The translations under genes and the position numbers were made by a program. Positions 7,758 to 57,701 of a stretch of 64,000 bases of DNA are shown here, in pieces (the stretch's first letter is position 1; the number at the start of each line of letters is the position of its first letter). This DNA comes from an uncultured archaeon (GTDB lineage Archaea > Iainarchaeota > Iainarchaeia > Iainarchaeales > VGJJ01), in assembly GCA_964480125.1 (NCBI GenBank), contig CAYZNV010000003.1, positions 3,201-67,200 of the forward strand. The letters run 5' to 3'. The notes below the pieces were generated by a model. It was not told where the DNA came from. It searched no databases and saw nothing but the letters and a program-made list of their open reading frames with translations.

Positions 7758-7809
7758 AGGCCAGTTTCGGCTGGCCACAGCGAGAACAGGTGACCGCTTC
7801 GCGGCACCT
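7758..7809 (+). repeat. Hairpin-pair intergenic element, copy A
   Basis: GGCCAGTTTCGGCTGGCC hairpin, ACAGCGAGAA spacer, CAGGTGACCGC-TTC-GCGGCACCTG hairpin. Confidence 0.75.
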
Positions 7810-7815
7810 GATTGT

Positions 7816-7865
7816 ACCAATTTCTGGCTGGCCACAGCGAGAAAGGGTATCGCTAGCGCGACACC
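7816..7865 (+). repeat. Hairpin-pair intergenic element, copy B (tandem to A; first hairpin has a degenerate 5' arm)
   Basis: ..TTTCTGGCTGGCC, ACAGCGAGAA, AGGGTATCGC-TAG-CGCGACACCC. Confidence 0.65.
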
Positions 7866-7886
7866 CAATATGATTGTTTTTTACTC

Positions 7887-8213
7887 CTACAAAATGTGTA
7901 ATGTGCCGAATTTACCCGTGCTAAGCTGTAATTGCCCTTTATACTCGGAAACCCAGCCGTTTTCAATGCGGATTTTTGTGCCTTCATTGACTTGGTCAAT
8001 CTGTTCATTCCAGAGAGACACTTGGACTTCGCCCGTTTCGTCTTTTCCCGCAACATTGCATACTTTTCCCTGCCCCTTGGCGGAAGCAAATTCGCGAGGT
8101 TCACCCTTGGAAACCACCTCAAGCTCAATAAAGACATTCCCCATGCGAGGTTTCAATTGTTTGACTTTCATTAATTCGGCCATACTAACCAACTCCATCC
8201 TGAAAAGCGGCAA
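7887..8213 (-). CDS. OB-fold nucleic-acid-binding protein (SSB/RPA-like)
   Basis: 108 aa with a single OB-fold-like pattern (VSKGEPREFASAKGQGKVCNVAGKDETGEVQVSLWNEQ). Confidence 0.5.
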   Translation of the reverse strand: MPLFRMELVSMAELMKVKQLKPRMGNVFIELEVVSKGEPREFASAKGQGKVCNVAGKDETGEVQVSLWNEQIDQVNEGTKIRIENGWVSEYKGQLQLSTGKFGTLHIL

Positions 8214-8299
8214 ACCTAGGTCTACACACCCTACGTTAGCAGTATTTCCTCTCCCCTCATTAAAAAAACCAATCTGTAATTTTGCACAAGAACGACCGG

Positions 8300-8307
8300 T
8301 TTTAAAG
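8300..8307 (+). promoter_or_regulatory. TATA-like box (TTTTAAAG) for the peroxiredoxin gene
   Basis: About 52 nt upstream of the ATG at 8359. Confidence 0.35.
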
Positions 8308-8345
8308 CAAAATGTCTCTTTGTTGGAGCGTATTATCCCATTCTA

Positions 8346-8350
8346 GGAGG
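8346..8350 (+). promoter_or_regulatory. Shine-Dalgarno GGAGG
   Basis: 8 nt upstream of the ATG at 8359. Confidence 0.5.
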
Positions 8351-8358
8351 AACATTAC

Positions 8359-8886
8359 ATGACATTAGTTGGACAAAAAGCCCCCGAATTCAATAGCATG
8401 GCCTATCACGATGGAAAATTCAAAAAAGTGAGCCTGAAAGACTACAAAGGAAAGTGGGTCGTGTTATTCTTCTATCCACTAGACTTCACGTTCGTCTGCC
8501 CCACCGAAATAAAGGGATTCGCCCGCAGCGAAGGAGAATTCAAGAAACTCAACGCAGCCATTGTGGGCGCGAGCACGGACTCGGAACACTCCCACAAAGC
8601 ATGGATCGAACGCGATATGCCTGAAATTAAATTCCCCATTCTCGCGGACACCAATCACCACGTCGCACGCTCTTTTGGAGTATTGAAAGAAGACCAAGGA
8701 ATCGCGTACCGAGGAACATTCATCATCGACCCCGAAGGATTCATCCGCTTCGAAACAGTAACAGACTTGGACGTGGGACGCAGCGTCAAAGAAACACTAC
8801 GCGTATTACAAGCATTCCAAACCGGAGGACTATGCGAAGTCGACTGGGCACCCGGCATGGAAAATTTGAATAAGAAGAAAAAGTAA
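8359..8886 (+). CDS. Peroxiredoxin (2-Cys Prx / AhpC-TSA family)
   Basis: FYPLDFTFVCPTEI peroxidatic-Cys motif; 175 aa. Confidence 0.9.
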   Translation: MTLVGQKAPEFNSMAYHDGKFKKVSLKDYKGKWVVLFFYPLDFTFVCPTEIKGFARSEGEFKKLNAAIVGASTDSEHSHKAWIERDMPEIKFPILADTNHHVARSFGVLKEDQGIAYRGTFIIDPEGFIRFETVTDLDVGRSVKETLRVLQAFQTGGLCEVDWAPGMENLNKKKK

Positions 8887-8887
8887 T

Positions 8888-8940
8888 TGTCCAGTTTCGA
8901 TTGGACCAACCGAGCACAGGTGACCGCTATCGCGGCACCT
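8888..8940 (+). repeat. Hairpin-pair intergenic element, copy C
   Basis: Starts 2 nt after the prx stop: GTCCAGTTTCGATTGGAC (compensatory changes relative to copy A), CAACCGAGCA, CAGGTGACCGC-TAT-CGCGGCACCTG; followed by a T-tract. Confidence 0.75.
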
Positions 8941-8962
8941 GATTTTTTCTATTTATCATTTT
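8941..8962 (+). terminator. Oligo-T tract (archaeal-style termination signal) after prx and element C
   Basis: ATTTTTTCTATTTATCATTTTT. Confidence 0.4.
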
Positions 8963-9405: not shown

Positions 9406-9435
9406 TTTTAAAGCCGACCCAATTCCTTTCGACGT

Positions 9436-10284: not shown

Positions 10285-11343
10285 TCCCACGCGTTTTCGG
10301 AGATTGCGCAAGTGAGTAGTCATCGTTTGTGGACTGATTTTGAGCAATAATGCAACCTTTCTGCGCGTATAGCCCTTGGAAAGCAAATTAATTATTTTGC
10401 GCTGCATCGTGCCAGGCTTTGTTGCTTTGATAAGACCACTCCACTCAATGCGGTTGGATTCCTGCAAGGGGGCAGGAGATTCCACCTCGTCCGGCAACAT
10501 GCTGAGTATCCGCACTTTTTTCTTTTTACGACCGAATTTCTTACGAATCGCGTCAATCATCATGAAACCCACACGGCTACGCACAAATTTTTTCCATTTA
10601 ACCGCAATAGATTCGTTGCTATTGATTTTTTTGGGGTCGAAGAACATCACTTCATTCTCGAGGCGAGAAAACACCAGGCTGATCATCTCATCTTTTGGGA
10701 TAATCGTCTCCTTAATCCATTTTTCCAAGAGAGGATAGACCATAAATAACAATTGACGACGCCTTCCCTTGGAGAGCCTATTCTTCACCCGCACGCGATG
10801 GAATTTCGAATTAGCCTTAGCAATGGCAACTACCTGCTCTTCCTTGGTGCGCAAACCATTCAAACGGATAAATTCATAAATAAAATTTATTGATGGCACT
10901 GGTCGACCGGCCGCGTGCTTCATCAATTCCTCATGAATCTCTTTCGGGATCGCGTGAGGCGCCATCTTTTCGATCGTGCGTATAAACCAAAAACGAGGCA
11001 ACTCCAATACCCAATTACGCGCGGGACCCGAGCGCTTCATCCGGCGATAGAAGTCAAACAATGCCCTTCTGGTATGGGGCTTTGATTTATTCTCAGGAGA
11101 TAATTGACGCAACAACATGACGGTGAGCGAATAAGGTACGTGCGCGCGCTCACTGATATCCCTTGCAGTAGTAAAAGGCAATAACCGGCGCTTAGAAAAA
11201 TATCCACGCTGGCGGGGAGTCATATCCCTAAGAGTACGTTCCACCCAACTATTCACAGGGCGCTTTCCTGGCATGCATAATAGAGAACGAACAGAGTATA
11301 AAAATCTGGAGAAAAAAATAAGACAGGTGCAATCACATTGCAC
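10255..11343 (-). CDS. Hypothetical regulator with C-terminal LuxR/GerE-like HTH
   Basis: C-terminus KIINLLSKGYTRRKVALLLKISPQTMTTHLRNLRKRVG looks like a sigma-70 region 4 / LuxR HTH. The N-terminal start is uncertain. Confidence 0.35.
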   Translation of the reverse strand: MQCDCTCLIFFSRFLYSVRSLLCMPGKRPVNSWVERTLRDMTPRQRGYFSKRRLLPFTTARDISERAHVPYSLTVMLLRQLSPENKSKPHTRRALFDFYRRMKRSGPARNWVLELPRFWFIRTIEKMAPHAIPKEIHEELMKHAAGRPVPSINFIYEFIRLNGLRTKEEQVVAIAKANSKFHRVRVKNRLSKGRRRQLLFMVYPLLEKWIKETIIPKDEMISLVFSRLENEVMFFDPKKINSNESIAVKWKKFVRSRVGFMMIDAIRKKFGRKKKKVRILSMLPDEVESPAPLQESNRIEWSGLIKATKPGTMQRKIINLLSKGYTRRKVALLLKISPQTMTTHLRNLRKRVGLPTRAKKVV

Positions 11344-11375
11344 CTGGATATCGGCACCGCGCGACGAATCGCGCG

Positions 11376-12482
11376 CTAGATATACTTCAAATCAAAATCA
11401 TTGCTTCCGCCGCTGCGCGCAGGGGCTGCATTGCTGCGGCCCAGGCTGGTTCCGCTGGATTGCTTTCCTTTGTTGATGAAAGGACTTTTCACGCCAGTGA
11501 AGACCGTGATGATTTCCACTTTGTTGTCGAATGTGGGATTGATTCTTGCGCCCCAAATGACAGTAGCGCGTGTATCAATCTGTTCGGTCAACATCATTCC
11601 AATCGCATTGGCTTCTCCGAGCGTGAGTTCGGGTCCTCCGGTAATGTGATTCAACGCACCCTTTGCGCCGGCGATGTCGACGTCCAACAAGGTGTTGTTG
11701 AGCGTGTCCGCAACGGCTTCTTCGACGCGATTAACGGACTTGCTTTCTCCCACTGCAATCATGGACAAGCCGTGACCGGTCATGATGCTTCTGACGTCAG
11801 CGAAGTCCAAGTTGATCAAGGAAGGCTGGGTAATGGTTTCCGTGATTCCGCTTACCACGCGAGCCACCAATTCATCCGCCACGCGGAAAGCGTCTTGGAT
11901 GGGGAGGTTGGGCACTAATTCTGCCAAGCGATTGTTGTCGATCACAATGACGGTATCGCAGATATCGCTCAAGCGCTGAATTCCTTCCTCTGCTTTGATG
12001 GTTCTCGCTCGTTCGAGGGAGAAGGGGTAGGTGACCATGGCAATAACAATGGCGCCTTGTGCTTTTGCAATTTCCGCAACGACAGGAGCAGAACCTGTTC
12101 CGGTTCCTCCACCCATTCCAGCGGAGACAAACAACATATCCACTCCCTTGAGCACGGCCTCTAAGTCGCTCTTGGAGACTTCGGCTGCTTTGGCTCCGAT
12201 CTCAGGATATCCACCCGCACCCAATCCGCGAGTGACACTTTTTCCGATGAGAATCTTAGTAATGTTATCCGAGATAATGGACAAGTGCTGCTTATCCGTG
12301 TTGATGGCAACCAACTGCGCGCCCGCGACATTCATGCTCGCGAGACGGTTAACGGCATTACATCCGGCACCGCCGCATCCCATTACCATAATCTTTGGAA
12401 CAGACAAATCATCCATTCGAGTTTCTTTTTCACTATTCATTGCAGGTCCTTTGCGGACTGCTTCATCAATCATGGAACGCAT
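11376..12482 (-). CDS. ftsZ: Cell division GTPase FtsZ
   Basis: GGAGCNAVNRL and GGGTGTGSAPV tubulin/FtsZ signatures; 368 aa. Confidence 0.9.
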   Translation of the reverse strand: MRSMIDEAVRKGPAMNSEKETRMDDLSVPKIMVMGCGGAGCNAVNRLASMNVAGAQLVAINTDKQHLSIISDNITKILIGKSVTRGLGAGGYPEIGAKAAEVSKSDLEAVLKGVDMLFVSAGMGGGTGTGSAPVVAEIAKAQGAIVIAMVTYPFSLERARTIKAEEGIQRLSDICDTVIVIDNNRLAELVPNLPIQDAFRVADELVARVVSGITETITQPSLINLDFADVRSIMTGHGLSMIAVGESKSVNRVEEAVADTLNNTLLDVDIAGAKGALNHITGGPELTLGEANAIGMMLTEQIDTRATVIWGARINPTFDNKVEIITVFTGVKSPFINKGKQSSGTSLGRSNAAPARSGGSNDFDLKYI

Positions 12483-23480: not shown

Positions 23481-23611
23481 TCCTACACCACAATAAAGTC
23501 AAATAGCAAGCCTTTTTATGAGCTCCTAGGGGTCATTCTAGTATTGGCCTACTGAACCATTGCAAAATGGTTCCAAGGTAGTCCTTCGTATGATCGGGAC
23601 GAAAACCGATT

Positions 23612-26343: not shown

Positions 26344-26427
26344 TATGATAAGTTGAAGCGAAAAGTAGTTATTGGGTACTGCGAAGCAGCTACCCATTCT
26401 CGGCGCGCCCGGTCAAAACACGGGCGA

Positions 26428-26988
26428 TTAGAATCTCCAATTCCAATCGTGCTGGTGCTTGAAGAACAAATACGCGAGATGAATCCATGAAAGCAAGAAT
26501 GGAAATAACAAGAACGAAATACTCGGGCCCACTAACGTGGAAGTGGAAGTCTGGATGTTCTCAGTAACGAAGAAAGTAATAACCGTATTCGCGTACACAG
26601 GAGAAGGAACTGCATCCACGGCTTGTAAGATTTGCACTAATGGAAAAATGGGAGAGAAAGTGAGCAGCACGCTCAACAGACTTGTGAAAAAGATGGCAAT
26701 TGTGAGAGGGTTCTTGTGAATGTACACATTGCCCAATCCAGGCAATAATAAGTTAGAAAAAATAGAAACGAAAATGGATTTCTGCCCTTCACTTTTTTGG
26801 ATTTTCCTGGAATTGGATTGGATCGCTTTCCAGTCTTTCTTTACATTGATTGCTTTTTCCTTCTGCGTGATTGGCCAAATCTTACTTCTCTTGAAGTGCC
26901 CCAACTCATTCACATCAAAATCCTCAGGATCAAATGTCTGTGCTTGCGCGAGTTTGCGCTTTGAATTTTTTTTAGTGGAACGAGCCAT
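26428..26988 (-). CDS. Hypothetical membrane protein
   Basis: K/Q-rich N-terminus then 3-4 TM helices. Confidence 0.35.
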   Translation of the reverse strand: MARSTKKNSKRKLAQAQTFDPEDFDVNELGHFKRSKIWPITQKEKAINVKKDWKAIQSNSRKIQKSEGQKSIFVSIFSNLLLPGLGNVYIHKNPLTIAIFFTSLLSVLLTFSPIFPLVQILQAVDAVPSPVYANTVITFFVTENIQTSTSTLVGPSISFLLFPFLLSWIHLAYLFFKHQHDWNWRF

Positions 26989-27461: not shown

Positions 27462-28055
27462 TTAGGGGGTTTGGTAAAAAGCATCCATCCAACTAAATGG
27501 AACTATTTTCCCCATAATGTCTCCTTTTGAAAAAAAACCTAAGGAACCACTATCTTTGCTGTCATTGCGATTGTCGCCAAATGCCACTACTTTCCCCGAG
27601 GGCACTATCCCATCCGCTGCGCGGAGTTGTTCCATCAGCGCAGAATAATGCGATGGGCCAACGGGCTCCAACAGATAAGGCTCAAGCAGCTGCACGCTGT
27701 TGCGATACAGTGCATTCCCGCGCAACTCGAGCCTATCTCCTTCCACTGCCACAATGCGCTTAACCAATGGAATGACGGAGGAGATCTGGACAATATCCCC
27801 ATGGGCGAGGGATTGAGTAGAATAATAATCCGAAACAAACAGAATACGTTGATTGCTTTGAAGTGAGGGATTCATGGAATTACCCACCACTTGAATGAAT
27901 GTGCACGTGTGTATTTGGCAATACTTTTGACTCAACCCTGGAAAGAAATCCAGCCCGGCTTTGGATTCCAAAAAATACATCCCGCCCATGAGCCCAACGA
28001 GCATCATGAGAATGACGGCTCCGCTGACTAACACCCAGGAATGCGTCATATTCAC
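27462..28055 (-). CDS. Signal peptidase I, bacterial P-type (Ser/Lys)
   Basis: N-terminal TM; box B GNSMNPSL, box D VKRIVAVEGD, box E GDNRNDSKDSGSLG. Confidence 0.75.
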   Translation of the reverse strand: MNMTHSWVLVSGAVILMMLVGLMGGMYFLESKAGLDFFPGLSQKYCQIHTCTFIQVVGNSMNPSLQSNQRILFVSDYYSTQSLAHGDIVQISSVIPLVKRIVAVEGDRLELRGNALYRNSVQLLEPYLLEPVGPSHYSALMEQLRAADGIVPSGKVVAFGDNRNDSKDSGSLGFFSKGDIMGKIVPFSWMDAFYQTP

Positions 28056-28102: not shown

Positions 28103-28140
28103 GGATTCCTTCAACCTCTTCTAGTAAGCCAATATCCCTG

Positions 28141-28224
28141 CACGGGTAGCGAAGCGGTCAAACGCGCCAGACTCAAGATCTGGTGACTTAGTGTCTTCGG
28201 CGGTTCGAATCCGCCCTCGTGCAT
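28141..28224 (+). tRNA. tRNA-Leu (anticodon CAA), class II with a 15-nt variable arm; CCA not encoded
   Basis: Acceptor GCACGGG/CTCGTGC (one G-U pair); anticodon stem CCAGA/TCTGG with loop CU-CAA-GA; T arm GGCGG-TTCGAAT-CCGCC; discriminator A. Confidence 0.85.
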
Positions 28225-28317
28225 GCACGCTTCCGATCGTGCGCACCGGAATCCAGGCACCATTTCTGAATGGTGCCTGTCCGTTCATCATTTTTCTCCA
28301 TCGAACGCATCGCATGA

Positions 28318-30115: not shown

Positions 30116-30174
30116 TCACCATCAGTGAGCAGCATGAATCAGCCTTAAATGCCTCGCGGAGAGAGAAGAAATAT

Positions 30175-30678: not shown

Positions 30679-30706
30679 TTAACTCCTGCAACCAGCATCC
30701 ATACAA

Positions 30707-32431: not shown

Positions 32432-32439
32432 ATTACACG

Positions 32440-32462
32440 GCATCGAATGAAAAAATATTCCC
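32440..32462 (+). terminator. T-rich tract after polX
   Basis: AAAAAATATTCCCTTTTTCATGG. Confidence 0.25.
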
Positions 32463-33517: not shown

Positions 33518-33541
33518 AACCTTAGAAAAAGCACATCAAAT

Positions 33542-33604
33542 CAGGTATCGCTTAGCGATACCTGTTCTCGGTCCGCCCGGACGAAACCGGGCCGAAACGG
33601 GTCC
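33542..33604 (-). repeat. Hairpin-pair intergenic element, copy D (reverse orientation, three hairpins)
   Basis: Reverse complement reads GGACCCGTTTCGGCC + GCCCGGTTTCGTCCGGGC, GGACCGAGAA, CAGGTATCGC-TAA-GCGATACCTG; overlaps the last about 16 codons of ORF 33552..34136. Confidence 0.7.
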
Positions 33605-34136
33605 CGCAGTGCGGACAAAACTTATCGCGCCAATCCACCCATTTCCCGCACGCATGGCAATGGATGAATTTTCCAGGAACACGACGCGGGTGCTCGCGCA
33701 ACCATTTTTGGGTTTGTATCAGCGCAAGGAGGCGCTGTTCAATCTTTGGAGCATTACTTCCATAGAAGACGCGGTGTTGCATCATCTCATTATGCTCATA
33801 CGCCACGTGCAATTCCTTTGAAACAAATCCCTTTGATTCTATTTCAACTAAATCATGCAAGTAGAGCTCGAACAAAACTTCTGGAAATTTCAATGACTCC
33901 GCTTGCTTGCTGAGGAAGAGCACGCGTTGCGTGGTGGCGACTAATACTCCATTCAGGCGCGCCGCCACGGGAATATTTTCTTGAACGGGAATCTTTTGAG
34001 GCAACATCCCAAAGAGGGGCTTTTCTTCTTCGACCCATTGCGCTTCAAGTTTGAATCCATCCATTTGCATGGGGAAGAAAAATAACACGGCCTCGCGGGG
34101 ATGCAAAAAAATGTGGGAAATCCATTCCATGCTCAT
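33552..34136 (-). CDS. Hypothetical protein with C-terminal zinc ribbon
   Basis: CHACGKW...CPHCG; the C-terminal tail is encoded by repeat copy D, so the true stop is uncertain. Confidence 0.4.
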   Translation of the reverse strand: MSMEWISHIFLHPREAVLFFFPMQMDGFKLEAQWVEEEKPLFGMLPQKIPVQENIPVAARLNGVLVATTQRVLFLSKQAESLKFPEVLFELYLHDLVEIESKGFVSKELHVAYEHNEMMQHRVFYGSNAPKIEQRLLALIQTQKWLREHPRRVPGKFIHCHACGKWVDWRDKFCPHCGTRFGPVSSGRTENRYR

Positions 34137-34176
34137 ACTATGCGAGGCGAAATTGGACTATTTAATGGAAATTATC

Positions 34177-34779: not shown

Positions 34780-34809
34780 GCAAAAATTAGTCCGCCTTGA
34801 TTTATTGGA

Positions 34810-36659: not shown

Positions 36660-36746
36660 CTATGCAAGAGGGACAAATGCCGCCTATAAATACCTTGCTC
36701 CACTCCTGTCGCGCAGAACCATACAAAAATGCACCCAAAGCCACTC

Positions 36747-37844
36747 TCATCCAAAGAACTCATTCAAGCGCTTCTGCTTGGGAGGAGAAGCAAAGCCCCC
36801 CACGCGCAAACCCGCCCGGCGCAAGGGAAGAGGAGCATTCAGGAGAAGGGATTGGAACAATTGCTCGGCCTCCAAAAAAAATTGCTCGGAAGAAACGCAT
36901 GGAACATGAAGCGTCGTGGAGCGAGTCATCTGTTTCAGCGCAATATCAATCCCAACCACACTAATCTGAGTGAAAAACTTTCCCTGCGCCGCGGTCTCAT
37001 CCCATAATTCTTGGGACTTTTCTCTCACGAGCTCGCGCAAGTCATTCCAATCCTGCGTGTCGCGCTGCAGCGTCCAAATGCTCGAGCGCTGTTGCTTCTC
37101 ATAATTCGTCTCGAGTGGAGACTCATCCACTCCCCGAGAAGCATGGAAGAAATACTGTCCGCGCGCCGCACCAAAAAGAGAAACCAACTCGCTCGCACCC
37201 CCACTGCGGAGCTGCGCAATCGATAGGATGTTTTTTTCGGAAAGCAATTGCTCGGTCTTGGGACCCACTCCCAGTAATGCCTTCACGGGCAATGGATCCA
37301 AAAAAGACTGCACCTCATCGGGCCTCACCACTGTGAAACCATTTGGCTTTCTAAAATCAGAAGCAATCTTTGCTACTAACTTATTGGGGGCAATCCCAAT
37401 AGAACAACCCAAATTAAATTCCTTCAAAATCTTTTGTTGAAATTCCCTCATGAGCTTCTCGGCAAGCCCATAGTCTCCCTGCGCTTTCTGCGTGAGATCG
37501 GCATACGCTTCATCGATGCTCGCCATCTCCACCGCATCCCCATACGCAAATAGCTTCGTGAAGATTTGCTCGGAAAGCTGACCATACAGCGTATGATTCA
37601 CCGGTAAAAAATGACCCAATGGACATAAGGACTTCGCCTGCGCGATGGGCATGCCGGCTTTCACTCCTAGCTTGCGCGCATCATAACTCGCAGAGCTCAC
37701 GACTCCCGAATCCAGCGTGCGACCCGAAAAAACGCACACCACGATGGGTTCATTCTTCCACTCGGGATGGGCATTCGCCTCAATGGAAGCGAAGAAGGCA
37801 TTCATGTCCACGTGCGCAATAATCCGAGCCGGCATAACCATCAT
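36747..37844 (-). CDS. dinB: DNA polymerase IV (Y-family, DinB/Dpo4)
   Basis: IAHVDMNAFFASIE N-terminus, catalytic motifs and little-finger domain; 365 aa. Confidence 0.85.
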   Translation of the reverse strand: MMVMPARIIAHVDMNAFFASIEANAHPEWKNEPIVVCVFSGRTLDSGVVSSASYDARKLGVKAGMPIAQAKSLCPLGHFLPVNHTLYGQLSEQIFTKLFAYGDAVEMASIDEAYADLTQKAQGDYGLAEKLMREFQQKILKEFNLGCSIGIAPNKLVAKIASDFRKPNGFTVVRPDEVQSFLDPLPVKALLGVGPKTEQLLSEKNILSIAQLRSGGASELVSLFGAARGQYFFHASRGVDESPLETNYEKQQRSSIWTLQRDTQDWNDLRELVREKSQELWDETAAQGKFFTQISVVGIDIALKQMTRSTTLHVPCVSSEQFFLEAEQLFQSLLLNAPLPLRRAGLRVGGFASPPKQKRLNEFFG

Positions 37845-50618: not shown

Positions 50619-51401
50619 ATGGAACTCGAACAAGCCAAGGAAGCGCTCGATCGCGCGCTGGCGAGGAAGGACTTGATCATGTTGATTGGGGATTGCCGCG
50701 TGCAATACCATGGACGCGCCGCGAGCAATCTCCCCACAGGATCGCGCTTGCTCCTGATTAAGGGGGATGGAAGTTTTGCCATCCACCAAAACAAGCTACT
50801 ACGACCTACTAATTATTTGATGGCCAATTCATGGTCTACGAAAATGGATGAAGGAAAACTCGTGATTGCGGCGACGAAGCGCGCTCCGAAAGAATCGCTT
50901 ACGGTGACGCTGGAAAAAGTAGAGATGCTCAATTTGCACACCATGGAAGACAAAAAAAGCGATTTCAAATTAGTGGGAAGCGAACGCGAACTCAGCAATC
51001 AATTGATGGATGATTTAGAGGTATTGGAGAAAGGACTAAAACCCCTCAAGCAGGAATCCCACCTGCGCAAGGGAATGATTGATATTTTGGCGGAGGATAA
51101 GGATGGGAATCTTGTCGTGATTGAACTCAAACGAAGGCAAGCCGATTATGATTCCGTCATGCAACTGCATCGCTACGTGCCCGAAGTCAAGAAGACAAAA
51201 GGAAGAACCATTTTAGTCGCACCCGAAATACGCAAGACCGCAATGGAGTTGCTCAAGAACAATGGATTGGAATACCGCTCATACCAATTTGATGTCACAC
51301 AACCCAAAGCAACGATTGCAGGAATTGAAAAGAAACAGAAAACCATTTTCGAAGCGTTTGATGAAAATACGGTTGTAAAAAAGAAAGAAATAAAAAAATA
51401 A
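50619..51401 (+). CDS. nucS: Endonuclease NucS (EndoMS), RecB-like nuclease
   Basis: N-terminal dimerisation/DNA-binding half plus C-terminal IDILAEDKDGNLVVIELKRRQA RecB-nuclease motif. Confidence 0.8.
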   Translation: MELEQAKEALDRALARKDLIMLIGDCRVQYHGRAASNLPTGSRLLLIKGDGSFAIHQNKLLRPTNYLMANSWSTKMDEGKLVIAATKRAPKESLTVTLEKVEMLNLHTMEDKKSDFKLVGSERELSNQLMDDLEVLEKGLKPLKQESHLRKGMIDILAEDKDGNLVVIELKRRQADYDSVMQLHRYVPEVKKTKGRTILVAPEIRKTAMELLKNNGLEYRSYQFDVTQPKATIAGIEKKQKTIFEAFDENTVVKKKEIKK

Positions 51402-51410: not shown

Positions 51411-51476
51411 CAGGTATCGCAACGCGATACCTGTTCTCGCTGCAGCCAGCCGAAACTGGCTCGGCCGAAACAGGCC
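51411..51476 (-). repeat. Hairpin-pair intergenic element, copy E (reverse orientation, three hairpins)
   Basis: Reverse complement reads GGCCTGTTTCGGCC + AGCCAGTTTCGGCTGGCT, GCAGCGAGAA, CAGGTATCGC-GTT-GCGATACCTG; A/T tracts on both sides. Confidence 0.75.
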
Positions 51477-51961
51477 TACTTCGTTCTCCATCCATCGTAC
51501 AACAATGGGACGCCGCTCACAATCGCGAGAACCGCGGACCCATACGTGCCGATGAGGCTGGGCATGAATGCGATCGCCAAAAATACAATGGCATTCAGCA
51601 CGCCGACTCCATAATAGAATTTCTCACGGGCTTTCCAGGTGTACCCGGTCGCAAGGAATCCGATTGCCATCAATAATGCCCAGAATCCCCATGCGGTGAA
51701 AAACAATGGAACGATTTTCATGACAGCGAGCCAGTGATAGATCATCCCCAGGACGGCGACGATAATCCATACCTTCACCACGTCCAACTTCATGGCATTG
51801 GGCATCCACTTAAGCATCGCAACCACTCCAATGATCGTCAAGACCGTCCATAAGATCATGGGCTGTGGGAAGTTAGGGTCCATGAGCAGGAACTGATAGA
51901 CACCATACCCAATAAAACAAATCAAACCCCATAAGAAAATACTCTTACCAATGTGATTCAT
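51476..51961 (-). CDS. Polytopic membrane protein
   Basis: 5 TM helices; 161 aa. Confidence 0.4.
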   Translation of the reverse strand: MNHIGKSIFLWGLICFIGYGVYQFLLMDPNFPQPMILWTVLTIIGVVAMLKWMPNAMKLDVVKVWIIVAVLGMIYHWLAVMKIVPLFFTAWGFWALLMAIGFLATGYTWKAREKFYYGVGVLNAIVFLAIAFMPSLIGTYGSAVLAIVSGVPLLYDGWRTK

Positions 51962-52087: not shown

Positions 52088-54616
52088 ATGCAATCCAAAA
52101 TCCATGCTACTCTTTTTTCCTTCATCCTCGTACTAGCAATGATTGGGACAATACCGAGTGCATGGGGTCTAGCCGAAGAGCCCCCAGCTGAACTCGATGA
52201 CACACTCGCGGATATAATCGAGGACGGGATTGCGGTCTCTTATACCACGCAAGCATGGTCTTCCCAGTACAATTTCCCCCAATCCTATTTCTCAGTGGAC
52301 GCGCTGGATTTCTATGATAATGCTATTGATTTTGGAGGAGTAGGATATTTCGCAATCGGCCTTTCTTATTTGCAGAACCCCCAGCTCGCAGACCTGGATA
52401 TCAATCAAAACACTCAGACTGAAATCCGAGCGCTTGCCGATCGCATGCTGCCATTCGTGTGGACTCCCGATGGAACGACGTGGGGAACGCACCACAAAGG
52501 AGTATTACCCAATGGAGTGACAACGAATGTGGTCACGGAATTGAAAGGAATCAATGGCACCAGCAACGCATGTAATGAATTGAGTATCAAATACAACGCA
52601 TGGGCCGTCCCTGAGAGCACGACGAATGCGCTTACCACATCCAACCTCGAATCCATCAGCGGAATCGGCACCCTATTCTTGTTGGCATCCACCACGAACA
52701 CGCCAAATACCACTGCATATCTCACTACGGCCAAAAACATGGGAGAACTTTTACTTTCGGCAATCATCACACCCGAAAGCGAATCATTCGGTATTCATCC
52801 CTCACAGCTCATCGACGATTACAATAATTCCATCCCCATTGGAATGATGCCGCGCGAATTCATCATCAAGACGGATAGCCCTGACACCCCATTGTGCAGC
52901 GATGGGGGCACCATCAAAATCCAGGAGAATGAAAAAACCCAATTAGCATTCACCGCACTTTTCTTCGACCGCTTGTTTCAGGCAACCGATGATGCACGAT
53001 TTGAGCGAGCAAAAGACTATCTCATCGACGGAATCCTTTCCCTGCAGGAATGCGATGGAAGTTTTCGCAATTACTCACGCTGGGAAGGACCGGGAAAGCG
53101 CGTCGTGACATGCACGCCGTCCGACGGGAGTGCGGAATACGAGCCCTATCCCTCTAATGCCACGCTCGCAGACACGCGCGGTCTTTTCTTGGACAATGCT
53201 ACTATCCTCTATTTGTTGCTCCAAGCCCAACCCACGATTTACTCTGATGATGCACGCTTCCGCAAGGCCGTACAATTCCTATTGGAACTCGAAGAAAAGG
53301 ATGGTGGAAATGGATACCGCACGAATGGGAGCCCATTGCGATATGCATCCTACTCCCTTCCTGAAAAGAGCGAGCCCCTGGCGCGATTGCTGATATCTAA
53401 TGTTTTCCTACGCTCTTCCTGCGAAGAAAGCGATTCATCCATCGAAGAAAGATTGCAATCAAAGGCATATTATCTGATGAACGCCAGCCAAGCCTATATC
53501 CAAACCGATATCGATTCCAAAATCAACAACGCAGTCGGACCCACTGTGGGCCCCCACTTCACTGCAATCGCTGCGACCGCGAATAGCTGGAAAATCATCA
53601 CCAAAGGATGCGCAGACTGCGTCGATGTGGATGGAGACGGGCACATTGATGGGGCGTGCGCTGGAGACACTGAGAAATACGATTGCAATGAAAATGACGC
53701 GAGTATTTTTCCCGGGGCCACAGAAGTATGCGATGAAGTCGACAATGATTGTGATGGAAAAGTGGATGATGGATTCGATGCCGATGATGATGGCGTAAGC
53801 ATTTGCGCCAACGACTGCAACGATAATGATGATAAAGTCTATCCAGGAGCACGCGAGCTATTGGATGAAAAGGATAATGACTGCAACGAAAAAACCGACG
53901 ACACTGGAATTTTGGTGCGTGTCATGGATGATTTGAATAATGGAATTCCAAATATCCAAGTCCATTTCACTGCACATGGGAATGCGTGCGTGAATTCATT
54001 CGCACTGCGCGTGGAAAACATTCCCTCGATTGTGCAGCAATGCAAAATAGAAGCCGAATGCACGACTGACCTGAATGGCTCCTGTCTCGGATTCTTCGAA
54101 AAAAATGGAGAATACGACGCCATCGCGGCAGTGGGAAATGAAGCCCTCTTTTCGGATGCCACTACATTCATCGTCGGAAACCGCATCAACCTCGATTTGC
54201 AGACCACTACTGGAATCAACGCAGCCACCCTTAACGGAAGCACCACTACTAGTGGAAGCCCAAAAAACTCCACAACACCCGATGAGGGAAGCTACCTCTT
54301 CATGGGGCTGCTAGTGATACTCCTCGTGGTCGGGGGAATCGGCGTCGCATTATTCTATCGCATGGGAAAAATACCCAAAATCACGCTCAACCTCGGAGGA
54401 AAAAATACTCCAACAAAAGCACCCACCAAGGGAAGCACTTCCCCTAGCAAAGCTGCACCCATTACAACTCCCACCCCAACAAAGAAAACAGATATGATTG
54501 TGGGGTTGAAGAAAGAAATGCCCATTGCCAGCACAACCAATTCCCCCACCCCACGCGAGCCCAACAAGCCCAAGTGGAAAGGCAATGATAGAACGATGCC
54601 GAAGGAATCGCAATAG
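52088..54616 (+). CDS. Large cell-surface protein with MopE-like Cys/Asp-rich repeats and C-terminal TM anchor
   Basis: Signal peptide; three C-x-D-x-D...PGA-E-CD-DNDC repeats (e.g. CNENDASIFPGATEVCDEVDNDCDGKVDDG); C-terminal TM LLVILLVVGGIGVALFY followed by a Thr/Pro/Lys-rich tail; 842 aa. Confidence 0.55.
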   Translation: MQSKIHATLFSFILVLAMIGTIPSAWGLAEEPPAELDDTLADIIEDGIAVSYTTQAWSSQYNFPQSYFSVDALDFYDNAIDFGGVGYFAIGLSYLQNPQLADLDINQNTQTEIRALADRMLPFVWTPDGTTWGTHHKGVLPNGVTTNVVTELKGINGTSNACNELSIKYNAWAVPESTTNALTTSNLESISGIGTLFLLASTTNTPNTTAYLTTAKNMGELLLSAIITPESESFGIHPSQLIDDYNNSIPIGMMPREFIIKTDSPDTPLCSDGGTIKIQENEKTQLAFTALFFDRLFQATDDARFERAKDYLIDGILSLQECDGSFRNYSRWEGPGKRVVTCTPSDGSAEYEPYPSNATLADTRGLFLDNATILYLLLQAQPTIYSDDARFRKAVQFLLELEEKDGGNGYRTNGSPLRYASYSLPEKSEPLARLLISNVFLRSSCEESDSSIEERLQSKAYYLMNASQAYIQTDIDSKINNAVGPTVGPHFTAIAATANSWKIITKGCADCVDVDGDGHIDGACAGDTEKYDCNENDASIFPGATEVCDEVDNDCDGKVDDGFDADDDGVSICANDCNDNDDKVYPGARELLDEKDNDCNEKTDDTGILVRVMDDLNNGIPNIQVHFTAHGNACVNSFALRVENIPSIVQQCKIEAECTTDLNGSCLGFFEKNGEYDAIAAVGNEALFSDATTFIVGNRINLDLQTTTGINAATLNGSTTTSGSPKNSTTPDEGSYLFMGLLVILLVVGGIGVALFYRMGKIPKITLNLGGKNTPTKAPTKGSTSPSKAAPITTPTPTKKTDMIVGLKKEMPIASTTNSPTPREPNKPKWKGNDRTMPKESQ

Positions 54617-54618
54617 CT

Positions 54619-54669
54619 GGCCAGTTTCGGCTGGCCGCAGCGAGAATGGGTGCTTTTTCAAAGCACCCA
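54619..54669 (+). repeat. Hairpin-pair intergenic element, copy F
   Basis: Begins 3 nt after the stop: GGCCAGTTTCGGCTGGCC, GCAGCGAGAA, TGGGTGC-TTTTTCAAA-GCACCCA (second stem completely different but still paired). Confidence 0.75.
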
Positions 54670-54680
54670 CTATTAAAAAA

Positions 54681-55952
54681 TTACTTTCCAAAGATTGCTT
54701 TCTTTCCAAGTGTTTCTTCGATGCGCAGCAATTGGTTGTACTTGTTCACGCGTTCGCTTCGCGAGAGAGCGCCAAACTTCACATAATTAGAATGCAATCC
54801 AACTGCAAAGTCCGCAAGGAACGAATCCTCACTTTCTCCGGCGCGCGCCGACACCAGCGTGGTCCATTTGGCTTCTTTGGCCATCGCATACGCTTGCATC
54901 GCCTCGGAAATCGTTCCAATTTGGTTGATCTTCAAATCCAATCCATTACAGGCCTTCAAATCCATCACGCGCTTCATGCGCATGGGATTGGAAACGAGCA
55001 AATCATCTCCCACAATGGGGTGAGTGGAGCCGATGCGCTGCATGGCACCCTGGAATCCCTGAATGTCGTCTTCGGAGAAGGGATCAATCAACACCGAAAT
55101 AGGGTATTGTGCCACCAAATTAGCATAATAGTTGATCAATTGTCGGTGCGTCAGCGCTTTATCCCCTAAATGATACGCGCCCTTCTTTGAAATGTGAGAT
55201 GCGGCCACGTTCAAGCCCATCTTGATCTGCTTTTCATAGCCCAATTGTTTTGCTGCTTCCATGACATGGTCCAGGGCAGTGTTCAGGTCGTTGACTGGAA
55301 CAGCAAACCCGCCTAATTCTCCCACGTTCACGGAAGTAGGCCCATACTTTTGGGCAAGGATTTGTTTGAGCGAATGATAAATTTCTTGCGTAATCTGCAA
55401 CGCATGCTCGACGGATTTTGCTTTGGTGGGTTCAACTAAAATTTCTTCCACCGGCAACTGATTCCCCGCGTGCTTGCCACCGTTGATGACATTCACAAGC
55501 GGCATGGGCAACTTGTAGAGTTTTTCCTTGCTCTGAGAGAGTTGAGAAACGTGCTCGTACACGGTTTGGTCTTGCAGCTGCGCGCCTAATTTGCAAATGG
55601 CCATTGAAACCGCGACCATGGCATTAGCGCCTAATTTATTTTTTTGCGGAGTGCCATCCAAATCAATCAGTGCTTTGTCGATTTCCTGTTGGGCGCAGGC
55701 ATTCATCCCCTGCAGTTCGCGGGCAATAGGACCATTGACATTCTTGACGGCCTTTGAAACCCCTAAACCCAAATAGGCCTTTTCTTCATCGCGCAAATCG
55801 TGGGCTTCATGTCTTCCTTTGCTGGTTCCAGCAGGGGCGATGGCGCGCGCCATCATTTGCCCTGAAATGGCCTCGACCTCAACGGTGGGCACGCCACGCG
55901 AATCAAATACCTGTCTGGCACGGATTTTTTCGACAGCAAACGGACTTTTCAT
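54681..55952 (-). CDS. eno: Enolase
   Basis: 423 aa with SRGVPTVEVE N-terminus, GANAMVAVSMA, and catalytic residues in conserved context. Confidence 0.9.
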   Translation of the reverse strand: MKSPFAVEKIRARQVFDSRGVPTVEVEAISGQMMARAIAPAGTSKGRHEAHDLRDEEKAYLGLGVSKAVKNVNGPIARELQGMNACAQQEIDKALIDLDGTPQKNKLGANAMVAVSMAICKLGAQLQDQTVYEHVSQLSQSKEKLYKLPMPLVNVINGGKHAGNQLPVEEILVEPTKAKSVEHALQITQEIYHSLKQILAQKYGPTSVNVGELGGFAVPVNDLNTALDHVMEAAKQLGYEKQIKMGLNVAASHISKKGAYHLGDKALTHRQLINYYANLVAQYPISVLIDPFSEDDIQGFQGAMQRIGSTHPIVGDDLLVSNPMRMKRVMDLKACNGLDLKINQIGTISEAMQAYAMAKEAKWTTLVSARAGESEDSFLADFAVGLHSNYVKFGALSRSERVNKYNQLLRIEETLGKKAIFGK

Positions 55953-56028
55953 GGTTTTTTACCCCTATCCCGGATAATGCTGGATACTATGCGCGGGAAA
56001 GATTAAAACCAGATGTATCGGCGCGGTA

Positions 56029-56481
56029 TTACTCTAATAACCTCGGCCCACGCTTTGGAGTCCGAAAGTTCAATATTGTCCTACGAGGACTTCCGCCATG
56101 CCTTAAACGGCTTTTTATCCGCTGCAGCCGGGCATATCTCATTTTGAGACGAACTGCATATTCTCTGATAAATCGCGCAACCGCTTCCAATGACGCCGTT
56201 GGTCGCCCGTGATTACGCGAACGAGCGGCCAGCCAGTTATCCATTTTATTTTTGAAAAAAAGATTCTCTCGTGCCTTCCTAAGTCCTTCTACTCCTTTTT
56301 GCTTGACTATTTCAGCTAATTGAAGTGAAAAATTATAATCCGCCTTCACGCGAAATTCCTTCATGCCTTTCGCATGCGCTGATTTTACAGCCCGATCCCG
56401 GCGGCTACGAATACGAGTCAAGCGCGAGCGACGAGATTGAACTATTTTCTTTCTGGATCGAAGTAATCGACGCTGGTTCAT
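56029..56481 (-). CDS. Hypothetical highly basic protein
   Basis: R/K-rich 150-aa ORF. Confidence 0.3.
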   Translation of the reverse strand: MNQRRLLRSRKKIVQSRRSRLTRIRSRRDRAVKSAHAKGMKEFRVKADYNFSLQLAEIVKQKGVEGLRKARENLFFKNKMDNWLAARSRNHGRPTASLEAVARFIREYAVRLKMRYARLQRIKSRLRHGGSPRRTILNFRTPKRGPRLLE

Positions 56482-56509
56482 TGAAAATCAATTCAAGAAA
56501 ATAGTCTGA

Positions 56510-57307
56510 CTATTTATGCTTGCTTTCTTCTGATGGTGAAGCGGATTCCGAAACGCCCTCAGCAGCATTCTTTTCCTTTATTTTCCGCAAATCAATGACT
56601 TTTTTCTGCAATGAAAATCCTTGGCCGCCAAAGAGCTCTTTGCTGATGGTGGTGACAACAAACTCATCCAGGCGCTTGTAATCAATCACGGGCGCGTTGC
56701 CTTCCAACAAAGGAAGCAACTCCTCCCAATTCAACCCAATGTGCCACAACCCTTCAATCCGTTCCGTGGCCAAGTGACCCTTACTGGTCAACGCGGACTC
56801 GATGAATGCCACATCGACTTTAGAAAAGCGGCGCGTATAGAAACCATCAAACCAATAATCATGACCCACAAACAAAACATTTTCCGGAGACACGTGGAGC
56901 TTTTCCATGAGCTGCAGTAATTGCACTTGGCGCGCGTATTCATCTTTGCATTCGGCATCGGAAACGCACTTGTGCTCATAAATGGTGCGATCCTCCGGCG
57001 TCATCTGTCGGATAAAAGCCTCATTGACCGCGAGCACATTTTTTCCTGGAGCAAAAGAAGGATCCGCGTCCTCGGAAAAAAAATCATCCAATCCAAACTC
57101 CTTGAGCTTTTTTTCTACTACCCCCAGCTTGAGCGCAGAAACACCAAAATAACGGAAACCTGAGTGGGATTTGGCATATTTTTGGAGGGATTTCAAAAAT
57201 TGCTGCACGCGCACCGCATCCACTGCGGAATTCACGGTTCCGGGAAAGAGAATGTCCTCGAGCAATAGCACTAAGACGGTTTTTTTGAGCGAAGAAGCCG
57301 CAGACAT
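56510..57307 (-). CDS. Hypothetical protein
   Basis: 265-aa ORF; no motif recognised. Confidence 0.3.
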   Translation of the reverse strand: MSAASSLKKTVLVLLLEDILFPGTVNSAVDAVRVQQFLKSLQKYAKSHSGFRYFGVSALKLGVVEKKLKEFGLDDFFSEDADPSFAPGKNVLAVNEAFIRQMTPEDRTIYEHKCVSDAECKDEYARQVQLLQLMEKLHVSPENVLFVGHDYWFDGFYTRRFSKVDVAFIESALTSKGHLATERIEGLWHIGLNWEELLPLLEGNAPVIDYKRLDEFVVTTISKELFGGQGFSLQKKVIDLRKIKEKNAAEGVSESASPSEESKHK

Positions 57308-57419
57308 ACATGAAACGTGGAAATGAACGCTTAAAAACGCCTTGCGCGACGCACGGAATTGACTGTTTTGCGAAGTAAAAACACCTGTTTAAAACACTTT
57401 TTCATTATAATGAGTTAAT

Positions 57420-57650
57420 ATGAAGTGTGTGGTTTGCTCAAAAAAATCAACCGCCAACAACACCTTTGGCCTGCCCTCGTGCAAGGACCATTTGAATTTA
57501 CCCCTCGACCCACCCAAGTGCCCCGAGTGCGAAACCCCCATGGAATTACGCCATCGCAAGAACGGCGCATTCTGGGGATGCCCATCCTTCCCTAATTGTT
57601 TTGGCTCACGCAACCTCATCAAGCCCATGGAAGAAATGGATATTTTGTAA
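57420..57650 (+). CDS. Topoisomerase-type C4 zinc-finger small protein
   Basis: CPECETPMELRHRKNGAFWGCPSFPNC matches the zf-C4_Topoisom pattern; 76 aa. Confidence 0.5.
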   Translation: MKCVVCSKKSTANNTFGLPSCKDHLNLPLDPPKCPECETPMELRHRKNGAFWGCPSFPNCFGSRNLIKPMEEMDIL

Positions 57651-57701
57651 CGCCCATTTCGTAGGGCGAATCCGAATCCAGGTTCCATTGCGATGAAACC
57701 T
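57650..57701 (+). repeat. Hairpin-pair intergenic element, copy G (most diverged)
   Basis: CGCCCATTTCGTAGGGCG, AATCCGAATC, CAGGTTCC-ATTGCGATGA-AACCTG; lies between convergent genes and is followed by T-tracts. Confidence 0.55.

Follow-up and report, generated by a model that had tools for sequence, protein, structure and literature searches.

The systems closest to the repeats analysed here are the bacterial REP/BIME elements (REPINs with RAYT), which are short, GC-rich, dispersed extragenic hairpins kept by compensatory change. They accumulate at the 3' ends of genes and at convergent junctions, form mosaic mixes of hairpin types and linkers, behave as rearrangement hot spots and have been proposed to act in mRNA stabilisation and transcription attenuation; their frequent contiguity with stop codons is known (PMC3733652). 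No archaeal report of REP/BIME repeats was found in the literature. Rho-independent terminators also stand directly behind genes, as a GC-based stem followed by an oligo-T run. Other comparable elements are the archaeal MITEs and IS200/IS605-derived PATEs, which are small, do not code for protein, occur in several copies, contain hairpins and differ between close genomes, and the integron attC sites, with conserved structure and variable sequence, which lie directly past or overlap the stop codon in a fixed ORF orientation. All these traits are shared by the repeats described below. The histone mRNA 3' stem-loop (SLBP site), where a conserved hairpin between invariant bases marks the point of RNA-end formation by a CPSF73-type nuclease, may be regarded as working in a like manner, by analogy only and with no sequence or structural similarity to the present repeat. 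Archaea terminate with the CPSF73 homologue aCPSF1/FttA, to which the repeat might be linked by the same analogy.

The window, a stretch of 64,000 nucleotides from a small groundwater archaeon (Iainarchaeota, DPANN), carries double-hairpin repeats of about 52 bases that are flush with protein and tRNA gene ends. In the unit, hairpin 1 has a 7-bp stem and a UUCG loop, the spacer that follows is 11 nt long (NNNN-CGAGAA-N), and hairpin 2 has 10 bp and a base conserved as YRGGU/ACCYR. The UUCG loop, the CGAGAA spacer and this base are the invariant features, and the highest conservation is found at single-stranded positions. The original prediction had described a GTTTCG-containing loop for hairpin 1, which is in fact a 7-bp stem on a UUCG tetraloop, and a spacer with the correct CGAGAA core and a length of 10 nt, one fewer than found. 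Its seven copies are all present with shifts of 1-2 nt, and they were an under-count: a covariance model recovered three further copies (I, H and J, the second also detected by nhmmer), which gives 10 canonical copies plus an inverted variant beside tRNA-Ser. The covariance model scored the seven original copies at 46-75 bits (E 2e-12 to 2e-21), they fold with minimum free energies between -17 and -29 kcal/mol (z-scores between -2.0 and -5.0), and a 31-nt degenerate consensus matched four times in the window and never in 100 shuffles, so the family is not due to chance. The only 3' flanks in the window at -20 kcal/mol or below are those bearing the repeat, which accompanies only about 11% of the genes. 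The family had no match in Rfam at gathering or E-value thresholds and none in viral contigs, and metagenome contigs yielded one true match. None of the papers searched contained a relevant description, and no array is present, as expected for a family that is not CRISPR. These results support the proposal of an undescribed family of structured repeats, of a kind known from bacterial REP/BIME.

The structure of the repeat is conserved by covariation. RNAalifold predicted 17 pairs, with double changes in 10 of them. Among 17 copies, 90.9% of the paired cells were complementary versus 74.5% in shuffles (none of 500 shuffles reached the observed value), and both sides had changed in 12 of the 17 pairs, covering both stems, which bears out the compensatory changes reported from the first seven copies. 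Slid controls gave 26-38% pairing, and the ratio of G-U to A-C in the stems (19 vs 10) provided no clear strand signal.

Copy A (7759..7810, + strand; 70.4 bits; fold -28.6 kcal/mol, z -4.07) comprises hairpin 1 GGCCAGU[UUCG]GCUGGCC, spacer ACAGCGAGAAC and hairpin 2 AGGUG..CACCU. It is antisense to both neighbouring genes and is preceded by the conserved TAATGTAGCA; its site is also filled in the relatives L074, CP064981.1 (L073 18120-18175) and L072. Copy B (7816..7866, +; 53.6 bits), in tandem with copy A, shows a degenerate hairpin 1, an alternative hairpin in its fold and a T6 at 7877-7882, and relatives have a single copy at the A/B site. Copy C (8889..8941, +; 65.2 bits), with a T6 at 8943-8948, begins 2 nt past the TAA of the peroxiredoxin gene 8359..8886. 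Copy I (11324..11375, -; 31.8 bits, E 5e-8; fold z -3.67), which has a UUCG loop, spacer GUGCCGAUAUC and a T7 at 11312-11318, is located at 0 nt from the TAG of ftsZ (11376..12482). Copy H (26373..26426, -; nhmmer E 1.5e-6; 52.2 bits), with hairpin-1 loop UGUUUUGAC, lies 1 nt past the TAA of gene 26428..26988. Copy J (28225..28279, +; 25.8 bits, E 3.5e-6; fold z -4.03), with loop UUCCG, spacer CGGAA and a T5 at 28291-28295, starts 1 nt past the discriminator base of tRNA-Leu(CAA) (28139-28224).

The two reverse-orientation copies recognised at the outset do carry an extra 5' hairpin, apparently hairpin 1 duplicated in part. In copy D (core 33542..33592, whole element to 33605, -; 71.3 bits) it occupies 33593-33605 (-). 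As proposed, this copy provides the final 16 codons and the stop of a Zn-ribbon ORF (33552..34136; Pfam Zn_ribbon at aa 158-181), directly past the CPHC zinc knuckle. In copy E (core 51411..51461, whole element to 51476, -; 75.4 bits), which is followed by T5 and T7 runs, the extra hairpin GGCCUGUUUCGGCC is found at 51463-51476 (-) and begins on the G of the TAG that ends gene 51476..51961; this three-hairpin subtype is also present in CP064981.1 (L007 896-962). Copy F (54619..54669, +; 70.1 bits) is placed 2 nt past the TAG of an 842-aa gene (52088..54616), with the end of the convergent enolase gene 12 nt further on; four independent Logan assemblies break at 54621, and L012 has a related copy downstream of an enolase 86% identical to the neighbour of copy F. 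Copy G (57651..57702, +; 45.9 bits; fold z -2.37) is at 0 nt from the TAA of a 76-aa Zn-ribbon gene (57420..57650), and a weak inverted AU-rich hairpin nearby (57717-57733) adjoins the convergent Lrp-like gene.

Copies are enriched at convergent junctions, which hold seven of the 10 in the window (7/19 convergent versus 2/55 other junctions, p = 7e-4). The convergent placement originally put forward is an enrichment and not a rule; copies also follow tRNA genes and occupy co-directional junctions. A sharper regularity is that the hairpin-1 end stands 0-3 nt past a same-strand gene 3' end, as in eight of the 10 window copies (seven ORFs and one tRNA) and in 15 of 24 copies across seven genomes. 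Ten of these 15 lie past or overlap a stop codon (supplied by the repeat itself in copy D) and five lie past tRNA genes. The hairpin-1 end is the flush one at every convergent junction, with 9-196 nt between the hairpin-2 end and the convergent gene, and this polarity speaks against the bidirectional terminator suggested earlier. The repeat takes its orientation from the neighbouring gene and flips within 3 kb, so the replication strand does not determine its direction. Twelve of 22 copies have a run of T5 or longer within 16 nt past hairpin 2 (against a background of 3.8%, p = 5e-12), starting 1-12 nt past the stem; T-tracts follow on the sense strand, and their presence on both strands, also claimed before, is not consistent. 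tRNAs lacking the repeat lead straight to oligo-T.

Canonical copies are confined to a narrow subclade of Iainarchaeota, to which CP064981.1 belongs. Where the same sites are compared among close relatives, copies have been gained or lost, or a plain hairpin plus T-tract terminator stands in their place, including between genomes at 90-98% amino-acid identity. On the 3' side of ftsZ, a plain GC hairpin with a T-tract is found in L022, L024, L025, L026 and L027, and diverged double hairpins in L020. Past a peroxiredoxin gene that is 99% identical, the window has copy C and CP064981.1 and L072 have unrelated hairpins with T6. Hairpin-1 and hairpin-2 variants common to several genomes are freely recombined, near-identical modules appear at non-orthologous sites of different genomes, and orthologous copies at the OB-fold junction have near-identical flanks and compensated interiors. 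Assemblies break inside copies. Tandem duplication is seen in A-B and in a 104-nt unit of L006, L020 has a duplicated 20-nt tRNA-Ser fragment before one copy, and at the repeat-bearing TyrRS and Prx junctions gene content differs between close relatives exactly there.

The explanation that we prefer, with a probability of about 50%, is that these lineage-specific mosaic repeats are an archaeal counterpart of REP/BIME that occupies the terminator-hairpin slot of genes and works as an RNA 3'-end module. Among the options originally listed, a REP-like repeat with a terminator or RNA-stability role fits best, because copies lie between a gene end and oligo-T, in the slot where relatives have a hairpin and T-tract. 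From this placement we infer that transcripts of the upstream gene would carry the canonical unit as their final ~55 nt: it would separate the stop codon of an mRNA, or the discriminator base of a pre-tRNA, from the oligo-U terminator. The two very stable hairpins would then form a 3'-terminal cap that would assist RNA polymerase in stopping at the U-tract, with less read-through into the convergent neighbour, and would shield the transcript against 3'-to-5' decay, whereas in pre-tRNAs RNase Z would remove the unit. The invariant loop, spacer and hairpin-2 base most likely constitute a putative protein recognition surface, and the gain, loss and homogenisation of copies could be due to gene conversion or ectopic recombination among hairpin modules.

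Several observations count against this 3'-end module. U-tracts alone, with no hairpin needed, have been described as sufficient for archaeal termination (PMC7515710), 10 of 22 copies have no nearby T5 run, and a genome-wide excess of hairpin plus T terminators is not clear (36 versus 24.4 +/- 4.1 expected in the window; 30 versus 27.5 in L022). A sense 3'-end role does not suit about a quarter of the copies, namely A, B and their orthologues (which run antisense to both flanking genes), L027a, and three leader variants in inverted orientation that abut tRNA 5' ends. The repeat also departs from Rho-independent terminators in its extra 5' hairpin and conserved spacer, in the shared sequence of its copies and restriction to a minority of genes, and in the distance of the T-run from the stem, which is 0-2 nt in those terminators. 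Plain hairpins of relatives lie 10-39 nt past the stop, so that the flush placement of the repeat is tighter than termination needs. In contrast to REP/BIME, the repeat is found in an archaeal host, its unit is not a palindrome or inverted pair but joins two different hairpins, always in the same order, through a conserved single-stranded spacer, GTAG and CGTC tags are absent, no RAYT was found here, and copies abut tRNA genes on both sides.

A selfish REP- or IS200/IS605-derived single-stranded DNA hairpin element, moved by a nuclease of HUH/Y1 or other type whose gene lies elsewhere in the genome, is a less likely origin that deserves consideration. Its distribution would mark only the places where a compact genome tolerates insertions, at the 3' ends of genes, at convergent junctions and beside tRNAs, and the element would have no host function. 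The multi-copy mosaic, the turnover between close genomes, the tandem duplications, the tRNA-Ser fragment, the ORF lengthened by copy D, the two orientations beside tRNAs and the stop-codon contiguity of bacterial REPs all agree with such an element, as does an IS200-type Y1 transposase in a relative (L025 1-275); however, that relative has no canonical copies. No transposase was detected among about 60 window proteins scanned, and only IS200-type Y1 enzymes, not RAYT classes, have been reported in archaea (PMC6006769). Terminal inverted repeats, target-site duplications, a conserved flanking tetranucleotide and a GTAG tag were not found for the family, which sets it apart from the MITE considered before and, together with its far smaller size, from PATEs. 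Its orientation follows the neighbour gene and it substitutes for plain terminator hairpins. Target choice or tolerance alone would hardly produce the polar flush placement, seen at 15 independent gene ends whose flanks are unrelated. A DNA-level site, either a folded single-strand recombination site of the attC type or the binding site of a chromosome-organising protein, is very improbable. Stems conserved in structure and not in sequence and the orientation fixed relative to the ORF recall attC, and the gene-content differences at the TyrRS and Prx junctions also agree with such a site, but the genes involved are core and syntenic (ftsZ, peroxiredoxin, tRNAs) and not array cassettes, no integrase was found in the window, the two separate, unlike hairpins are not one bulged hairpin, and RYYYAAC/GTTRRRY (R'/R'') core sites are absent. 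Moreover, a double-stranded-DNA-binding protein would not select compensatory stem changes.

An RNA end-marking or processing signal, cut by a nuclease or by the RNA itself at the outer edge of hairpin 1, is the sole reading that directly explains the flush junctions, since the repeat would then have to abut the mature RNA end (a stop codon, the 3' end of a tRNA or, for the inverted variant, its 5' end); we nevertheless consider it rather unlikely. Its active fold may be a pseudoknot between the hairpin-1 loop (UUUCG) and the spacer (CGAGA), which are complementary in 90% of cells and show two pairing-consistent changes (UUCCG/CGGAA in J and AAUU/GAUU in L007b), within the most conserved part of the repeat. 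This complementarity, at 89.8%, does not exceed that of shuffles (88.8%; 104 of 500 reach it), and a 4-nt linker over a stem of 6-7 bp is sterically tight by general pseudoknot geometry. No Rfam ribozyme matched the repeat (RAGATH-13 reached 19 bits against a threshold of 80, with many non-canonical pairs), an mRNA cut right past the stop codon would terminate translation poorly, and tRNA ends are already set by RNase P and RNase Z.

Two additional elements in the window differ from the canonical unit. The inverted leader variant (23546..23610, -) scores only 10.8 bits. Its hairpin 1 is AUCGG[UUUUCGUC]CCGAU, CGAAGG occurs in its spacer and its hairpin 2 is long. The 5' end of tRNA-Ser, which is encoded on the other strand (23611+), lies 1 nt from the hairpin-1 end, and the variant shares 81% mean column identity with two CP064981.1 copies beside tRNA-Met and tRNA-Thr. 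A stem of hairpin-2 type, UGGGUGCC...GGCACCCG (6226..6258, -), located 2 nt past the TAG of a Tyr/Trp-tRNA synthetase gene (6261..7409), is possibly a solo member of the family, with uncertain membership; the orthologous site in CP064981.1 contains a canonical copy (L073 16587-16640, 43.8 bits).

The seven sites of the original prediction (A, 7759-7810+; B, 7816-7866+; C, 8889-8941+; D, 33542-33592-; E, 51411-51461-; F, 54619-54669+; G, 57651-57702+) have been read in the sequence, and they do share one architecture. It consists of a hairpin 1 with a 7-bp stem closed by a UUCG tetraloop (e.g. GGCCAGU[UUCG]GCUGGCC), an 11-nt spacer with the pattern NNNN-CGAGAA-N and a hairpin 2 of about 10 bp. 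The base of hairpin 2 is conserved and covarying (CAGGU/ACCUG or UGGGU/ACCCA), with free variation in the inner stem and in the loop of 3-4 nt; a short A/U stretch is usually found 3' of hairpin 2. The covariance-model search proposed with the prediction, run (model R1) together with nhmmer, has added to these seven the copies H (26373-26426-), I (11324-11375-) and J (28225-28279+), giving 10 canonical copies in the 64-kb window, plus one variant. All are intergenic save D, which, as had been claimed, supplies the final 16 codons of an ORF (for a Zn-ribbon protein), and also its stop. The extra 5' hairpins announced for the two reverse-orientation copies D and E each duplicate hairpin 1 in part, and this three-hairpin subtype is also present in CP064981.1 (Iainarchaeum). 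A third hairpin module (GAACCUUUCUCAAAGGUUC) is sometimes inverted downstream of hairpin 2, producing dyad composites, and in this inverted form it is carried by some copies only (L008a and L006c of CP064981.1 and, weakly, G). The called GTG start of the HTH-domain ORF 10255-11343- lies within hairpin 2 of copy I, so the real start codon probably has a more downstream position; the similarity of its product to integrases is sub-threshold only (PF13009, E 0.0086).

The compensatory stem changes described originally were recovered by RNAalifold, which predicted 17 pairs from the seven copies, with compensatory changes in 10 of them. When 17 copies from two genomes were considered, 90.9% of the pairing cells were paired versus 74.5% in column shuffles (0/500 shuffles as high) and both-side changes were found in 12 of the 17 pairs, whereas sliding the partner by 1-3 columns as a control left pairing at only 26-38%. 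Folding energies of single copies ranged from -17 to -29 kcal/mol, with z-scores of -2.0 to -5.0, and a strict 31-nt consensus gave 4 matches in the window and none in shuffled sequence.

The placement of the element was polar and flush with gene ends. In the window, hairpin 1 was located at 2 (C), -1 (E), 2 (F), 0 (G), 1 (H) and 0 (I) nt from the same-strand stop codon and 1 nt past tRNA-Leu (J), with D fused to its own ORF; in CP064981.1, three copies were at distance 0 past stop codons and four at 0-3 nt past tRNA genes (Leu-GAG, Thr, Met and Lys-UUU). At convergent junctions hairpin 1 was without exception the flush end, and hairpin 2 was 9-196 nt from the other gene. Location between convergent genes, also part of the prediction, proved to be an enrichment, with copies at 7 of 19 convergent versus 2 of 55 other window junctions (p = 7e-4). 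The orientation of the element switches inside 3 kb (E on the minus strand, F on the plus strand), tracking the gene, and no 5' flanking motif is common to the copies, the flank being TAG, TAA or a tRNA acceptor end. An exception to this 3'-end pattern is provided by copies A and B, which, like their orthologues, lie antisense to the genes on both sides. A run of T5 or longer was found within 16 nt past hairpin 2 in 12 of 22 copies (background 3.8%, p = 5e-12), at a gap of 1-12 nt, the U-run of a bacterial intrinsic terminator following its GC-rich hairpin immediately; the T5 run was missing near the other 10. Archaeal terminators have been described as hairpin-free U-tracts (PMC7515710), and oligo-T follows directly the tRNAs that have no element. 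The usual order is gene end, element and oligo-T, which would place the element within the transcribed 3' flank.

The same slot has been compared among relatives. Behind ftsZ, copy I and a T7 are found in the window, one GC hairpin and a T-tract in five contigs (L022, L024, L025, L026 and L027) and, in L020, diverged double hairpins arranged as an array. Past the peroxiredoxin gene (99% identical), the window has copy C, and CP064981.1 and contig L072 have two unrelated hairpins and a T6. The stop of the Tyr/Trp-tRNA synthetase gene is overlapped by a canonical copy in CP064981.1, and the gene carries a solo hairpin-2-like stem in the window and nothing in L072 and L074. Within the window, 3' flanks folding at -20 kcal/mol or below were element-bearing ones only. 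Thus, some genes keep a 3' hairpin, but which hairpin it is changes rapidly. No clear genome-wide excess of hairpin terminators was found in these genomes. Among genomes 90-98% identical, gene content differs exactly at element-bearing junctions (window 6200-6260 and 8887-8960; L072-L074), with an HD-domain gene, a 165-183-aa gene or nothing past the TyrRS gene, and a glycosyltransferase, a cupin or a 294-aa gene past the peroxiredoxin gene, depending on the genome.

Hairpin-1 and hairpin-2 variants combine in many ways and are shared at non-orthologous sites in both genomes: C and L008a have a common hairpin 1 and spacer, D and E a common hairpin 2, and B and L009a (CP064981.1) another. At the OB-fold junction, four genomes agree in the position and orientation of one copy, with near-identical flanks that include TAATGTAGCA directly 5' of the copy; the interiors differ by fully compensated changes (GGCCAG/CUGGCC versus GGCCGC/GCGGCC, and three inner hairpin-2 stems), a pattern suggestive of replaced modules rather than point mutations. 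Also conserved in four genomes is TAATGTAG (window 7749-7756+, ATG then TAG; equivalents in L073, L072 and L074), 2 nt 5' of copy A and with a palindromic TTTATAAA box upstream, which may be a start-stop mini-ORF or belong to a stand-alone element transcript. Tandem duplications comprise the predicted A-B pair, whose members are 5 nt apart, and a 104-nt unit in L006 (4620-4800+) that consists of ~17 nt from the 3' end of tRNA-Met, one copy of the element and a tail of 26 nt. Contigs of five independent public assemblies end within copies or at their edges (window 54621; the ends of L001-L004; the end of L074 at 19272). In practice, the repeat breaks up metagenome assemblies of this lineage and can lengthen ORF calls, 16 codons being added to one ORF by D; a called start is overlapped by I.

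The window has an inverted leader variant (23546-23610-) adjoining the 5' end of tRNA-Ser, and two others in CP064981.1 (L006 ~4487-4559- and ~1640-1710-) abut those of tRNA-Met and tRNA-Thr, in all cases with the hairpin-1 end at 0-2 nt from the tRNA 5' end. Their mean column identity is 81% at non-orthologous sites, and the apical stem covaries. For these tRNAs, the TATA-like box is found at about -95 to -100, versus about 40 nt upstream normally, and therefore the leader variant would occupy the entire 5' leader. From this placement it follows that, on whichever side of a tRNA the element lies, hairpin 1 always points to the boundary of the mature RNA, and no shared flanking motif accounting for it was found. 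A further arrangement is present in L020 (2091-2172-), where a duplicate of 20 nt from the 5' end of tRNA-Ser and a repeated promoter-proximal hairpin are followed directly by an element copy, with the intact tRNA-Ser ~45 nt beyond, as if an insertion had been accompanied by a long duplication.

The window, which encodes NucS, TFIIB, Lrp-type regulators, FtsZ and similar proteins, is syntenic with Candidatus Iainarchaeum/Diapherotrites MAGs. When 185,579 species genomes were scanned for the strict consensus, only CP064981.1, a complete 1.05-Mb genome, was hit (5 matches); an unbiased 21-kb sample of it contains 2 copies, and the proteins shared with the window are 85-100% identical. Canonical copies are also found in L074 (97-98% identical), L072 (about 91%) and L012 (enolase 86%), the last being the single true one among 10 scan matches in metagenome contigs; relatives at ~60% identity (L020, L022, L024-L027) have diverged versions or none. 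The canonical family simply marks one subclade. TFIIB is 100% identical in four of these genomes. A patchy distribution was considered and rejected because the ftsZ of L008 (5331-6359-, 75% identical to the window ftsZ at 11376-12482) is a paralogue and not the orthologue, other CP064981.1 proteins being 85-100% identical to the window genome; a canonical copy lies flush behind this paralogue. Viral contigs, in three scans (one in the wrong 12-N register), gave hairpin-less chance matches only, and a search for enolase homologues, aimed at the region syntenic to E-G, had no CP064981.1 orthologue among the matches listed. Scanning with a home-made hairpin descriptor was too noisy to serve as a census but exposed the third hairpin module and the diverged copies L022 176-234- and L027 4944-4996+.

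In the Rfam check that the original prediction had proposed, only two tRNAs reached the gathering threshold of Rfam 15, and E-value scans of the copies gave nothing or chance-level hits. A RAGATH-13 identity was rejected as chance (19 bits versus a threshold of 80, many non-canonical pairs), as were, by eye, C/D-box sRNA, K-turn, BHB motif, HDV-like and pistol assignments, with the needed boxes or strand order missing. Regarding DNA repeats, REP/BIME sequences and their RAYT transposases are regarded as bacterial; a REP family is characterised by a cognate RAYT (Y1 HUH) gene in its genome, with REPs on either side of that gene. The element resembles REPs, as suggested initially, in being a short, GC-rich, imperfect palindrome that is extragenic, dispersed and multi-copy; the likeness does not extend to the GTAG/CGTC end tetranucleotide, which is missing, nor to the BIME arrangement of REPs alternating in orientation with linker motifs between them, since the element has two unlike hairpins in direct order. 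Neither a Y1 nor any other transposase was found among the ~60 window proteins scanned. Archaeal Y1 enzymes reported are of the IS200 type only, RAYT classes not having been found in archaea (PMC6006769), and bacterial REPs are able to supply or touch stop codons (PMC3733652). A MITE-like nature, also put forward, was not upheld, the ends being unrelated (no TIR) and the flanks lacking direct repeats (no target-site duplication). The attC sites are single bulged hairpins with RYYYAAC/GTTRRRY sites in cassette arrays beside intI, whereas the element has two hairpins, no core sites and syntenic core genes as neighbours; no integrase is encoded in the window. Unlike PATE elements (IS200/IS605), which have subterminal hairpins, a conserved 5' target tetra- or pentanucleotide and an orientation tied to the replication strand, its flank is not conserved and its orientation follows the gene. 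A CRISPR was rightly dismissed from the start, as copies are solitary, without an array, and A and B have no spacer between them. The family lacks the REP tag, the MITE ends, the CRISPR array and the attC core sites, and is best filed as a member of none of these classes. An IS200-type Y1 transposase fragment with its own terminal hairpin (CCCAGGCCTTTAGGCCTGGG) lies beside the syntenic block in L025 (1-300), which belongs to a relative without canonical copies.

On balance, the element is read, with a probability of about 0.5, as a REP/BIME-like mosaic repeat in the terminator-hairpin slot and a putative RNA 3'-end module, which would assist termination, insulate convergent genes and shield the RNA 3' end, its copies being exchanged via ectopic recombination. 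A purely selfish single-stranded-DNA hairpin element is a weaker candidate although one to be taken seriously, and a DNA-level recombination or binding site is very improbable. The wobble-pair counts of the stems (19 G-U versus 10 A-C, the A-C mismatch recurring within one hairpin-2 subtype) do not identify the acting strand.

No known insertion mechanism explains why the element exactly adjoins stop codons and either end of tRNA genes. The flush junctions are best accounted for by an RNA end-marking or processing signal, an explanation which is nevertheless doubtful overall. For a loop-spacer pseudoknot, loop UUUCG and spacer CGAGA are complementary in 90% of cells, with two agreeing changes, but not beyond shuffles because both sides are nearly invariant. 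Equally doubtful is its strongest form, a new RNA end-marking class in which a dedicated nuclease or the RNA itself would set ends at the hairpin-1 edge. Such a class would have a compact, possibly pseudoknotted fold, would serve in one DPANN lineage mRNAs right past the stop and tRNAs at their 5' and 3' boundaries, and would have spread genome-wide as a repeat. Under the preferred reading as a mosaic repeat, the family would represent REP/BIME-type repeats in the archaea as an analogue, and in a DPANN genome so reduced that its scarce non-coding DNA is unlikely to be retained idly. It also suggests that some archaea use structured 3'-end modules for mRNAs and tRNAs alike, and the exact abutment offers a concrete, testable way of approaching how 3' ends form and how repeats behave in archaea that have not been cultivated.

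Two further features of the window were recorded. DNA-repair genes (HhH-GPD glycosylase, PolX with PHP, Y-family polymerase and NucS) are concentrated at 28759-37844 and 50619-51401, relative to what is a reduced genome, and two S26 signal-peptidase paralogues are encoded at 27462-28055 and 34177-34779.
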